Assembly: GCA_964461035.1 (NCBI GenBank)
Contig: CAYWRI010000003.1
Coordinates: forward strand, 3,213-67,212
From: an uncultured Methanosarcinales archaeon
GTDB taxonomy: Archaea; Nanobdellota; Nanobdellia; Woesearchaeales; CAYZNE01
Reading direction: 5' to 3'
Length of the DNA: 64,000 nt
The notes under the pieces: generated by a model
What the model saw: the letters and a program-made list of their open reading frames with translations, nothing else
Databases searched by the model: none
Told to the model about the DNA's origin: nothing
Part shown: positions 34,120-64,000 of the stretch, in pieces
Layout: each line of letters opens with the position of its first letter
How positions within the stretch are numbered: position 1 is the first letter of the stretch
Made by a program: the position numbers and the translations under genes

Positions 34120-34707
34120 TTAGATTTTTGTTAATTCTGTTTTTATTTGTTCATTACTTAAGAATAAAATACAATTTATTCCTTGTTTTTTAGCAGGTTC
34201 AAAGTATTTTTCTTTATTATCTATAAAAACTAATTCATTCGTTTTAAATTCAATTTCAGGAAGAATTTTATCCCAAATCATATCTTGAGTTTTACTGATT
34301 TTTAGTTTATGTGATAAAAATACTTTATCAAAATATTTATTGAAATCAAGCTGTTTTTCATAATTAGGAAATACTTGTTCAAAATTATTTGATAACAGGA
34401 AAATAGCGTACTCTTTTTTTAATTCTAGAATATACTCAAGTAACTCAATATTTAGTTTAGGAATTGTTTCAAATAGATACATAAAATCTTCAGGATTTTT
34501 GTTTTTATTTAAAGAATAAATAAATTAATCTAAAAATTGTTTAGGAGATAATTTTGCTCTTGCAAATGGTTGAATTAGTGGTTTAAATTTTTCTTTAACA
34601 AATGATTCATCCAAATTTAACTTAGTGCTTAGTTCTCTTGCAAGAGTATCTGCCCAATTTTCTGTGGTGCAAACTCCAAACCAATCAAAAATAATTGCTT
34701 TAATCAT
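34120..34707 (-). pseudogene. HAD-superfamily hydrolase-like gene interrupted by a single in-frame TAA, with a degenerate motif I
   Basis: Two ORF-track pieces (34525..34707 and 34120..34482) are in the same frame. They are separated by a TAA at 34525-34527 plus 14 sense codons. The N-terminal piece has 'IIFDWFGV' (DxDx[TV] with the second Asp replaced by Phe). The C-terminal piece has 'VFIDNKEKYFEPAKKQGINCILF' (motif III/IV-like). Confidence 0.45.
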
Positions 34708-53923: not shown

Positions 53924-54331
53924 CTATTTTTTCTTTGATTTAGTTGCTTTTAGTTTTTTAGTGATGCCCATTTTGTGATTGCATTTTTCACAATTAAAAA
54001 TTACGGCCTTAGTTCCAAGAAACGATTTTCTCTTAAAGGGCGCTTGAGTTTTACCAGAAAACCCGCATTCAGGGCAAGTATATTCAATATTACATGTTAG
54101 TAAATCTTCATATTCTTCAATAGGTGCACTATAACCACATTCAGGACAAACATATTCTTTCGCTCTAGTTTTGAATCTTCCAGTTTTAGGATTGATTGGC
54201 TTTCCCATTAGTCCTTTTTTACATTTAGGACATAATTCTCTAAAAACCCAGGCTCTCACTTTAAATTTATCGTGTTCTCTAATTGTTATATATACTAATT
54301 CTTTCATTGATTCAGGTTCTTTTAATTCCAT
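53924..54331 (-). CDS. Zinc-ribbon protein (four CxxC pairs)
   Basis: 'CPKCKK', 'CPECGY', 'CPECGF', 'CEKCNH'; a Lys-rich C-terminus. Confidence 0.45.
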   Translation of the reverse strand: MELKEPESMKELVYITIREHDKFKVRAWVFRELCPKCKKGLMGKPINPKTGRFKTRAKEYVCPECGYSAPIEEYEDLLTCNIEYTCPECGFSGKTQAPFKRKSFLGTKAVIFNCEKCNHKMGITKKLKATKSKKK

Positions 54332-54625
54332 TCATAACACCTCAAAAAGTTTCTGCTTTAAGTACAGTTTTTTATTCAAACTCTTCTCTTTTATATAATT
54401 ATTGATTTCTGCATCGGTCAGATGTCCATAATTCTTAGGTATGATACTAAGTTCTGAAGCTAATCTTCGATTTAGCCAGATTTTTTGTGAATCCATTGTT
54501 TTTTTAGGTTTTTTAATACATTCAACTTCCATAAGAATACCTTTGAATCTATGACCTTCAAAAGGTGAATGTTCATGAACATCTGCAACTTCTGCACTTT
54601 TTATTTTACATACAATTGTAGTCAT
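54332..54625 (-). CDS. Hypothetical protein (97 aa)
   Basis: ORF abutting the zinc-ribbon gene (a TGA stop immediately followed by ATG in the same frame). Confidence 0.35.
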   Translation of the reverse strand: MTTIVCKIKSAEVADVHEHSPFEGHRFKGILMEVECIKKPKKTMDSQKIWLNRRLASELSIIPKNYGHLTDAEINNYIKEKSLNKKLYLKQKLFEVL

Positions 54626-60435: not shown

Positions 60436-60957
60436 TTAATATTTATGTTGTTCTTCAAGTTTTATTGTTTGTAAATATCTTTTAAGATAAGCATCATCTT
60501 TTTCTTTATCGGAATAGAATTTTGTTTCTAACCAACTTTCAATAATATTTATACATTCTTCTATTGTTATTAAATCTGCACTTAATCCAATTACATTAGA
60601 ATTATTATGTTTCCGACTTGAAATAGCATCTTCTGCTGTTAAACATCTTGAAGCAATAATTCTACCATACTTTGATGCAGGTATAATAATTCCTATTCCA
60701 GAACCACATATTCCTATTCCGACACTATTTAAATAATTATTAGAAACATTACGCCCAATTTTATCAGATATTTCAGGATAATCACATCTTTCTTCAGAAT
60801 CAGTTCCTACATCAATTATTCCATAATTTTTTTCTTTTAGAAATTTTATAAGTTCTTTTTTATGTGCATAACCTCTATGATCAGAACCAATCACAATTAT
60901 TTTACCTTTATGAGATTCAATAGGGATTTCATAATTTTCAATTATTATTGAGTTCAT
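60436..60957 (-). CDS. rpiB: Ribose-5-phosphate isomerase B (RpiB/LacAB family)
   Basis: 'KIIVIGSDHRGYAHKKELIKFLKEKNYGIIDVGT', 'GIGICGSGIGIIIPASKYGRIIASRC', 'SRKHNNSNVIGL'. Confidence 0.8.
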   Translation of the reverse strand: MNSIIIENYEIPIESHKGKIIVIGSDHRGYAHKKELIKFLKEKNYGIIDVGTDSEERCDYPEISDKIGRNVSNNYLNSVGIGICGSGIGIIIPASKYGRIIASRCLTAEDAISSRKHNNSNVIGLSADLITIEECINIIESWLETKFYSDKEKDDAYLKRYLQTIKLEEQHKY

Positions 60958-61049
60958 ATCATCTTTTTTAATTTTAAAATATTTAAATCTTTTTAAAATT
61001 TAATCAGTTTTTCATAGGGTATCAATCAAAAAAAATAAAAAATTTATTC

Positions 61050-61253
61050 TTAGTCAATGTTTCTTCGTCTAAATCCTCTTCCTAATCCTTGTCTTCTTCC
61101 TAAACCTTGTCCTCGTCCAGCATAGTTTCTTTGACCTATTCGAAGTCTATTATCTGTTGTGTAGATTAGTTTATCATTGTCTGTGCAATCTCCTAATCCT
61201 CTTCCAGTTTTAGGGCCTTTTCCTTCTGGACCTGTTTTATCTCCATTTGGCAT
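61050..61253 (-). CDS. DUF5320-family small Gly/Arg-rich protein
   Basis: 'MPNGDKTGPEGKGPKTGRGLGDC' matches the MP(R/N)GDGTGPxGxGPxTGRGxGxC family start. Confidence 0.6.
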   Translation of the reverse strand: MPNGDKTGPEGKGPKTGRGLGDCTDNDKLIYTTDNRLRIGQRNYAGRGQGLGRRQGLGRGFRRRNID

Positions 61254-61322
61254 TTTATATTTTCCTCCGTGTGTTTTTATGGCTTTTCCATTAAGTAACG
61301 AATTTGTTATTTTTTTCTCTTG

Positions 61323-61532
61323 TTAAATTTTTTGAAAAGTTAATTGATGTATTTCTATTTTTTCAGTAGATTCAACTAGAGACAATTCTTTTATGTCATT
61401 AAGTCTTAAACACTCAATTTTGTTGTATGTTGACTCGTTAATTTCAAGTTCGTTTAATTTTATTCCTTGTGGCTTGAAATATTTTACTTCTGGCATAAAT
61501 TCAATTCTTCTTATCCGTTTTGGCCTTACCAT
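61323..61532 (-). CDS. DUF134-family predicted DNA-binding protein; Cys-less variant, apparently C-terminally short
   Basis: 'MVRPKRIRRIEFMPEVKYFKPQGI ... ECLRLNDIKELSLVESTEKIEIHQLTFQKI' parallels DUF134 'MPRPKKCRR ... FKPxG ... EALRLxDxEGLxQEEAAExMGVSRxTFxRIL'. Confidence 0.55.
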   Translation of the reverse strand: MVRPKRIRRIEFMPEVKYFKPQGIKLNELEINESTYNKIECLRLNDIKELSLVESTEKIEIHQLTFQKI

Positions 61533-61533
61533 T

Positions 61534-61549
61534 ATGCATTATAATGCAT
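61534..61549. promoter_or_regulatory. Perfect 16-bp palindrome ATGCATTATAATGCAT, starting 2 nt upstream of the DUF134 start codon
   Basis: Seen in sequence: exact dyad symmetry with an embedded TATAAT-like core. Confidence 0.4.
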
Positions 61550-61644
61550 AACTTATATATAAACTTTTTGGTATTTTGGGTCTTTTTTGTTATAAATTAA
61601 ATGTATTCAAAACCTTAATAAATACTAGATTTTAATGTGAATAT

Positions 61645-63460: not shown

Positions 63461-64000
63461 TTACCTTCGTCCTCTTCCTCTAGAATGAAATGAGTTTCTG
63501 TCAAAAGATCTTCCTGCAGGAGTTTTGAATTTTAATTCAACTTTTTTAACATCAGGAACTTTTTCTTGTTTTACTTTAATTCCCTGTTCTCTTTCAACTC
63601 TTTCAAAATTATCATAATCTCTTCTAGAAACTATGCTGATAGCAATTCCTTCTTTACCTGCTCTCGCAGTTCTTCCAATTCTATGAATATATTGTTTACT
63701 ATCATTAGGAATGTCATAATTATAAACGTGGGAAACTCCTTTAATATCAAGACCTCTTGAAGCAACATCTGTACATACAAGAACCTCCACTTTCTGTGAA
63801 TTAAACTTAGTCATTGTTCTTGTTCTTTTGTTCTGTGTTAATCCACCATGAATTGGGGTAGCATCAATTCCCATAGATTTAAGATTTTTTGCAACAAAAT
63901 CTACATTATTTCTCGTATTACAAAATATCATTACTAATCCTGAATTTTCTTCGTTAAGAAGATGAAATAATAAAGAAAATTTTAATCTATTATCAACATC
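63461..64000 (-). CDS. DEAD-box RNA helicase, C-terminal part only (continues past the window end)
   Basis: Motif V 'TDVASRGLDI', motif VI 'YIHRIGRTARAGKEG', and an RG-rich tail 'FHSRGRGRR'. The frame remains open to position 64000 ('...LVMIFCNTRNN'). Confidence 0.85.
   Translation of the reverse strand, partial: DVDNRLKFSLLFHLLNEENSGLVMIFCNTRNNVDFVAKNLKSMGIDATPIHGGLTQNKRTRTMTKFNSQKVEVLVCTDVASRGLDIKGVSHVYNYDIPNDSKQYIHRIGRTARAGKEGIAISIVSRRDYDNFERVEREQGIKVKQEKVPDVKKVELKFKTPAGRSFDRNSFHSRGRGRR

Follow-up and report, generated by a model that had tools for sequence, protein, structure and literature searches.

This analysis concerns two short open reading frames (ORFs), one belonging to Pfam family DUF134 and the other to DUF5320, in a 64-kb stretch of contig CAYWRI010000003.1 (27.5% G+C), the whole of which we refer to as the window. 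Its archaeal origin is evident from genes for ribosomal proteins S4e, L32e and L19e beside SecY. The DUF134 ORF (61323–61532, reverse strand) encodes 69 aa, comprising a basic N-terminal arm, helices 1 and 2 and the first seven residues of a recognition helix, and terminates at a TAA codon (61323–61325). The DUF5320 ORF (61050–61253, reverse strand) encodes a Gly/Arg-rich product of 67 aa with the conserved sequence MPxGDxTGPEGKGPKTGRGLGxC, matching the N-terminal MPxGDxTGPxGxGPxTGRGxGxC motif of the Pfam profile, and is probably still expressed. A preliminary description of this DNA, made from the letters alone, had named both families, and both calls hold: the 69-aa ORF scores 32.7 bits against DUF134 (PF02001) and the 67-aa ORF 48.5 bits against DUF5320 (PF17253), the Pfam gathering cut-off being 27 bits for either family. 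A lack of DUF134 profile similarity in the 69-aa ORF, which that description had said would overturn it, was looked for, and a match above the cut-off was found instead. The matches cover only profile positions 5–69 of 98 for DUF134 and 1–53 of 99 for DUF5320.

The two ORFs lie in one reading frame and are separated only by the single TAA and 23 in-frame sense codons (QEKKITNSLLNGKAIKTHGGKYK, 61254–61322, reverse strand), which still specify the C-terminal end of the DUF134 domain. When the TAA is translated through, the DUF134 match reaches profile positions 5–97 of 98 and its score rises to 51.2 bits. Because the ORFs share a frame, the DUF134 domain continues past the TAA and the relatives are single fused proteins, we read the locus as one fused DUF134-DUF5320 gene broken by a stop codon and not as two separate genes. 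As it stands, the window copy provides neither a complete, uninterrupted DUF134 domain (arm, three-helix helix-turn-helix (HTH) and C-terminal NGKAIxIxGG strand) in one polypeptide nor both domains in a single ORF, the TAA interrupting the shared frame. The preliminary description had taken the locus for a two-gene regulator/effector module, a view not supported by the finding of one fused frame, cut by the TAA here and fused in all close relatives.

A search of 5.8 billion proteins returned about 40 relatives in which both domains reside in one protein of 130–184 aa (143–185 aa for the intact fused genes of the close DPANN relatives), the best being 62–64% identical to the window copy; no intact DUF134 relative closer than 64% identity was found in that search. 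Those with names come from Woesearchaeota and other DPANN archaea, and in this clade DUF5320 is normally the C-terminal part of a DUF134 protein. The fused DPANN proteins (P0008, P0011 and entries listed by NCBI as 'DUF134 domain-containing protein [Candidatus Woesearchaeota archaeon]') share architecture, promoter, operator and leaderless start with the window copy at a protein identity of 56–64%. They are intact, however, and come first in operons with ArsP_1, Nitro_FeMo-Co, ParA/NUBPL and Zip genes, whereas the window copy is broken and stands alone, followed by a T-tract and rpiB. A natural split is seen in a Nanoarchaeota single-cell genome (L003, 2399–2845), where a 93-aa DUF134 ORF stops exactly before the DUF5320 Met in the same frame, indicating that fused and split forms interconvert.

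A probable lesion in the DUF134 half

The TAA recurs in L081 and L082, two metagenome assemblies made from other samples; one or two single-nucleotide polymorphisms (SNPs) elsewhere set them apart from the window, and the DUF5320 protein is the same in both, with one synonymous SNP. That the stop might be a sequencing or assembly error in an intact gene is suggested by the position of the underlying deletions, both of them in or next to error-prone A-runs, but recovery of the same sequence in two independent assemblies of other samples makes such an error extremely improbable.

A simple TTA to TAA point mutation was the first origin considered. DNA alignment with six relatives prefers a different lesion, a 1-nt deletion followed 10 nt on by a 5-nt deletion. 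The 10 nt between them (TTAACAAGAG, 61317–61326, reverse strand) are the same as in L086 and are now out of frame, such that ancestral T-TTA-ACA-AGA-G is read as T-TAA-CAA-GAG. Against the two closest relatives, the two-deletion model leaves 6 mismatches compared with 11–13 for any single 6-nt gap. The TAA therefore most likely arose from these two deletions within the recognition helix; the reconstruction stops short of certainty, given the distance of the relatives and the A-richness of the sequence.

The consequences of the stop can be gauged from an AlphaFold (AF2) model of the intact relative P0011, in which the DUF134 part is predicted with a per-residue confidence (pLDDT) above 90 and the DUF5320 tail is disordered (pLDDT below 50). 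The modelled elements are a strand at residues 31–34, helices at 36–47 and 52–59, the recognition helix at 63–83 and a strand at 86–89. The preliminary description had remarked that the DUF134 ORF ends inside the HTH, and on this model it does so 7 residues into the 21-residue recognition helix. Truncation would remove the other 14 of these 21 residues together with strand 86–89, which pairs with residues 31–34 in the model. Cut within the recognition helix, the 69-aa product has most likely lost its function.

The decay is asymmetric. Across the 31 columns of the DUF134 domain that are conserved at 85% or more, the window copy departs at 10, on both sides of the stop, compared with a mean of 1.8 in 40 relatives; the departures comprise 8 substitutions and 2 gaps and include replacement of the invariant Arg68 by Lys, Q52L, M59I and E38K. 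In the DUF5320 half none of the 13 conserved columns is affected. AT bias was considered as a cause of the lost residues and ruled out, as they are kept in L086 (26.7% G+C) and L002 (26.1% G+C), which are equally AT-rich. Set against the Pfam family as a whole (UPF0251/COG1342, 'predicted DNA-binding protein'), the window copy shares the M[VP]RPRK...YFKP arm, the sigma-70-region-4-like HTH and the NGKAIxIxGG end, and differs in having the TAA at about profile position 69 of 98, a recognition helix 2 aa shorter than that of the family and the loss of several near-invariant residues. An alignment of this kind had been proposed in the preliminary description to distinguish C-terminal truncation from a natural short form, and what it reveals is not a natural short form: the ORF ends at what looks like a lesion of two small deletions, accompanied by the loss of conserved residues. 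The same description had singled out the lack of Cys in the N-terminal 'KCRR' stretch. The Cys is indeed absent (RIRR; MVRPKRIRRIEF), but there is nothing peculiar in this, as among relatives with the same ATGCAT operator (see below) just 2 of 13 possess it, and 10 of 21 in the ATGAAT clade. Judging from these sequences, the Cys does not define the DUF134 family and its lack is usual in this clade.

Could the locus nonetheless be a natural module, in which a functional short DUF134 of 69 aa autoregulates via the palindrome at its start and a separate DUF5320 acts as the effector? The operator and promoter are perfectly kept, the short ORF retains the conserved basic arm, helices 1 and 2 and the beginning of helix 3, three assemblies agree on the stop, and L003 is a real natural split, its stop lying exactly at the domain junction. 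In the window copy, however, the stop costs two-thirds of the recognition helix and the strand pairing, in-frame codons beyond it continue to specify the remainder of the domain, it sits in an out-of-frame patch flanked by two deletions, conserved residues are lost on either side, and not one of about 50 relatives examined ends at this position. We regard a natural module as unlikely, and favour a gene that was broken within its DNA-binding half.

The promoter palindrome and its proposed partner helix

The preliminary description had drawn attention to a perfect 16-bp palindrome at the start codon of the DUF134 ORF. The palindrome is real and in fact spans 20 bp (TTATGCATTATAATGCATAA, 61532–61551), its 16-bp core (ATGCATTATAATGCAT, 61534–61549) being 1 nt off the ATG. 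It is situated between the start codon and an archaeal TATA box (TTTATATA, 61556–61563, reverse strand), whose position at -31 to -24 relative to the A of the ATG implies a leaderless transcript. Immediately upstream of the TATA box we read a purine-rich element (CCAAAAAG, 61564–61571, reverse strand) which, by analogy with archaeal promoter architecture, would be a B recognition element (BRE); it falls within a 39-nt block before the ATG that is the same in the window and L086. The proteins encoded by these two loci are 56% identical, and their four-fold degenerate sites agree at 27 of 43 positions.

Taken by itself, the window gives no reason to single out this palindrome. It contains 4 perfect 16-bp palindromes compared with 4.2 ± 2.0 in dinucleotide shuffles, and a single one of at least 20 bp where 0.5 would be expected, with 40% of shuffles holding at least one. 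An exact search of the 64 kb, extended to allow up to 3 mismatches, found no second copy (2 matches against 1.2 by chance), and the half-site pattern TGMAT-N4-ATKCA occurs 25 times against 24.3 by chance, with no other promoter-located site in the window. The palindrome is at chance level here; what makes it significant is solely that other genomes conserve it. The preliminary description had conceded that a palindrome frequent by chance would undo its proposal; within the window that is formally the case, and it is comparative data that rescue the operator.

Those data come from 80 loci encoding DUF134 relatives (435 kb), which we scanned for [AT]TG[AC]AT-N4-AT[GT]CA[TA]. The motif occurs 46 times compared with 1.9 ± 1.2 expected, a 24-fold enrichment, and 39 of the 46 matches precede the start of a DUF134 or DUF5320 gene by 120 nt or less. 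In dozens of archaea the site TTATG[C/A]AT-N4-AT[G/T]CATAA is found between the TATA box and the start of a leaderless DUF134/DUF5320 operon, and it is identical or nearly so, at the same position, in L003, L005, L016, L026, L083 and L086 among others. Alignment of 54 such sites yields a stereotyped promoter composed of a BRE-like ccgAAA (the position reads ccgAAA or caAAAA across the sites), TTTAWATA, a spacer fixed at 5–6 nt in about 48 of the 54, and TTATGmAT-N4-ATkCATAA. Downstream of the palindrome there follows either a leaderless DUF134 ATG or, ahead of a standalone DUF5320 gene, a short leader with a GGAGG site. The window copy has the same order of BRE and TATA box, 20-bp palindrome and leaderless ATG.

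The association also holds when the motif is taken as the starting point. The exact 20-mer is present in 31 metagenome loci of the JGI collection, and in 19 of them a DUF134 ORF begins 0–2 nt downstream; 17 of these ORFs are full-length and intact, the other 2 being cut by contig ends, and all 17 full-length examples are intact fused genes. In one further locus (L091, 1533–1552, on a contig of 40% GC) the exact 20-mer stands 8 nt upstream of a 122-aa ORF resembling an ArsR-type HTH protein, which may reflect coincidence or a shared operator.

The half-sites of the palindrome covary with the recognition helix. ATGCAT half-sites pair with the helix [IF]HQSTFQR in 14 of 14 cases, counting the HQLTFQK of the window, and ATGAAT half-sites with [IV]SQPTFHR in 21 of 21. 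The window helix, HQLTFQK followed by the stop, retains the H-Q and departs from HQSTFQR by Ser to Leu and Arg to Lys. DUF134 genes of bacteria (Dehalococcoidia/Chloroflexota) possess perfect palindromes of their own, 30–42 nt before their start codons: ATGAGCATATGCTCAT accompanies ISRPTFQR in eight Dehalococcoidia-type loci (L022, L027, L029, L030, L052, L055, L057 and L070), TTATGGGCATATGCCCATAA accompanies SRSTFQR in two (L033 and L039), and L062 has a third version, ATTATGAACCTATGTTCATAAT. The bacterial palindromes keep the outer TTATG...CATAA of the archaeal operator, and their differences from it track the recognition helix. A hybrid operator with one half-site of each type (ATGAATTATAATGCAT, L036, 3102–3117) precedes a DUF134 with the atypical helix ISQSTLSR, and the DUF5320 gene in that locus has a pure ATGAAT site. 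The covariation points to DUF134, rather than another factor, as the operator binder, and would correspond to a specificity code in which HQS reads ATGCAT, SQP reads ATGAAT and SRP reads ATGAGCAT.

It might still be asked whether an AT-rich palindrome that arose by chance, or a core-promoter element of a generic kind, could account for the site without DUF134. The site has a TATAAT-like core, and the chance frequencies and single copy reported above for the window are what such a reading would predict. Against this stand the 24-fold enrichment in related loci, almost exclusively upstream of DUF134/DUF5320 operons, the recovery of DUF134 in 19 of 31 loci by a scan that starts from the motif, and the way in which half-site variants follow recognition-helix variants even in bacteria with quite different promoters. 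We consider this explanation very improbable and read the palindrome as a putative DUF134 operator; the autoregulatory role proposed for it in the preliminary description gains support from its conserved promoter position across archaea and from its covariation with the recognition helix.

The closest solved folds and sequences to DUF134 are HTH domains of the SorC/DeoR type and of ECF-sigma region 4 (Bacillus subtilis DeoR, 7bhy/8r7y; SigE region 4, 2h27); a sequence search found no solved DUF134 structure, the nearest being the DeoR HTH. DUF134 matches DeoR with E = 5e-4 in a profile search, and Foldseek superposes these folds with a root-mean-square deviation of 0.5–1.0 Å over 40–50 residues; DeoR also uses a palindromic operator. 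The likeness to SorC/DeoR and sigma region 4 is confined to the HTH, since DUF134 has its own basic N-terminal arm and C-terminal strand and lacks the SorC effector domain and the other sigma regions. For the geometry of the site a different comparison is apt. The operators of the archaeal repressors MDR1, Phr and LrpA occupy the interval from the TATA box to the start site. The palindrome of DUF134 genes is placed in a similar manner, right after the TATA box and across the start site, although MDR1, Phr and LrpA belong to protein families unrelated to DUF134, for which repression is suggested by operator position. The literature searched contained no functional study of, or operator for, DUF134 (UPF0251/COG1342) or DUF5320, and the putative operator described here is new information for the DUF134 family.

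A proposed internal start of DUF5320 and the question of read-through

Survival of the DUF5320 half has a plausible basis in the gene itself. In the 'GG' that closes DUF134, the two Gly codons read GGAGGA (61263–61268, reverse strand), a candidate Shine-Dalgarno sequence 9–10 nt upstream of the DUF5320 ATG. These codons are GGAGG in 17 of 18 relatives in which the DUF5320 Met follows, compared with 22 of 48 otherwise (Fisher p = 2e-4). Within a set of 24 genes (23 relatives and the window copy), GGAGGT is found in 14, where Gly codon usage predicts about 10%, and the excess of GGAGG(T) is mainly seen where the Met comes 4–5 codons later (the L002–L086 fused genes). Standalone DUF5320 genes likewise have GGAGG leaders. 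We infer that GGAGGA works as a ribosome-binding site in the window copy; more generally, the codon bias suggests a conserved internal Shine-Dalgarno site, with the C-terminal DUF5320 module translated independently within the fused ORF. DUF5320 would then have been kept after the DUF134 half broke because it could be translated on its own.

An alternative is that the TAA is read through or recoded at some frequency, such that a full-length DUF134-DUF5320 regulator of 160 aa is still made. The frame is kept across the lesion, the post-stop codons are open and close to the family consensus (LLNGKAIKTHGGKYKM), and the operator is intact. The window also contains a second gene with one in-frame TAA, encoding a HAD-IA-like hydrolase (34120–34707, reverse strand). 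This gene is 81% identical to intact relatives of 200 aa; its TAA, at about 34525–34527, involves no indel and stands in place of a Gln codon (CAA) seen in the two closest relatives. Among the places listed, five that come from different samples (ENA, JGI and Logan) give the same C-terminal ORF of 120 aa, and a 60-aa ORF is also present in the three contigs that extend far enough upstream. The stop is fixed in at least five assemblies. Set against this, TAA is the ordinary stop of 39 of the 55 long ORFs in the window, two affected genes among about 60 is a normal pseudogene load, and the contexts of the two stops differ (TAA-C and TAA-T). A read-through product would also have a scrambled recognition helix, 2 aa shorter than usual and without the invariant Arg68. 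To our knowledge, no mechanism of UAA read-through is known in archaea. On account of the pseudogene load and the ordinary use of TAA we rate read-through as improbable. Genome-wide reassignment of TAA was ruled out as well, since TAA ends those 39 ORFs and just two genes are interrupted. What looked like a split DEAD-box helicase at 63461–63931 is a gene cut by the window edge.

Internal initiation and read-through can be combined in a broader proposal, namely that the family produces two products from one frame, a full DUF134-DUF5320 regulator and a DUF5320 peptide from the internal GGAGGT(G)-ATG, with low-level, context-dependent UAA read-through in this organism. If true, low-level read-through would explain two conserved genes interrupted by TAA, the frame kept across the lesion and the perfect operator. 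We nevertheless think this highly doubtful.

Probable decay of a putative autorepressed gene, its candidate regulon and its surroundings

Taken together, we consider it probable, with confidence that is real but far from complete, that this locus represents a leaderless, autorepressed DUF134-DUF5320 fusion of a DPANN-type archaeon in the course of decay, with its promoter-operator and DUF5320 retained. In intact relatives, the sigma-70-region-4-like HTH protein DUF134, presumably as a dimer, would bind the 16–20-bp palindrome TTATGCAT-N4-ATGCATAA. Bound there, between the TATA box and the point where transcription and translation begin, DUF134 would block recruitment of RNA polymerase and so keep both its own gene and the downstream operon repressed. 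The operon under such control would contain NifX-like (Nitro_FeMo-Co) proteins, P-loop ATPases of the Mrp/NUBPL type or fused to ferredoxin, ArsP-type permeases and ZIP transporters. In the window copy, promoter and operator are intact, and the two deletions in the recognition helix would have created an out-of-frame patch containing the TAA. The DUF134 product would end after 69 aa and the downstream operon is absent; the conserved DUF5320 half could be translated alone from the internal GGAGGA-N9-ATG.

Several observations sit uneasily with this picture. A perfect operator and 23 open, recognisable codons after the stop are somewhat unexpected in an old pseudogene; by a rough estimate, 20 nt evolving neutrally would have about a 10% chance of escaping change over the same period. 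A DUF134 paralogue elsewhere in the genome, outside the 64 kb, could maintain the operator. Possible explanations for its perfection are accordingly a fairly recent lesion, chance, a DUF134 paralogue using the site, or low-level read-through. The two deletions together restore the frame, which would be either luck (about 1 in 3) or selection, and their reconstruction leans on relatives that are just 56–64% identical and on A-rich sequence. The covariation is drawn from few clades, and hence from few independent events, and is support rather than statistical proof. Finally, the literature searched contained no binding, transcription or protein data for any DUF134 protein.

The composition of the operons offers a hint about what might be regulated. 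The operator-headed operons of relatives include 12 Nitro_FeMo-Co (NifX-like) members, 8 ParA/NUBPL-type P-loop ATPases and 6 ArsP_1 permeases, with 4 4Fe-4S ferredoxin domains, 2 ZIP transporters and single cation-efflux and EncFtn-like proteins. This content suggests a role for the regulon in the handling of metals or iron-sulphur (Fe-S) cofactors. Searches with tblastn found no match to the relatives' operon genes in the window.

Members of DUF134/UPF0251 (COG1342) and DUF5320 occur widely among anaerobic archaea and bacteria, and comparison of the window with its relatives provides a model for them, with a defined 16–20-bp operator, a promoter geometry of the repressor type and the predicted specificity code given above. 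With its NifX-like proteins, Mrp/NUBPL-type Fe-S ATPases and metal permeases, the candidate regulon suggests a part in the homeostasis of metals or Fe-S cofactors in DPANN archaea, in which genetic manipulation is impossible. The window copy itself would be an ordinary decaying gene, informative on what persists (DUF5320 and the DNA elements) once the DNA-binding half is lost.

The unit is preceded by a divergent gene for an MFS transporter. Directly past the DUF5320 stop codon we read an oligo-T tract (T6-A-T8 on the gene strand, 61028–61042, reverse strand), likely an archaeal terminator that divides the DUF134/DUF5320 unit from rpiB. The rpiB gene (60436–60957, reverse strand) lies downstream of the unit and has a TATA box of its own (TTTAAATA) about 25 nt ahead of its ATG. 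It appears to be leaderless, like the DUF134 gene, and the T6-A-T8 tract falls within the interval (60958–61049) that separates it from DUF5320. Scans of the window for tRNA genes and with Rfam found nothing. Elsewhere in the window, at 53924–54625 on the reverse strand, two abutting ORFs of 97 and 135 aa share a frame and are divided by a TGA codon; the 135-aa ORF has weak Zn-ribbon/Cas12f1-like TNB matches below the Pfam cut-offs, and the pair may represent a fragment of a TnpB-like gene.

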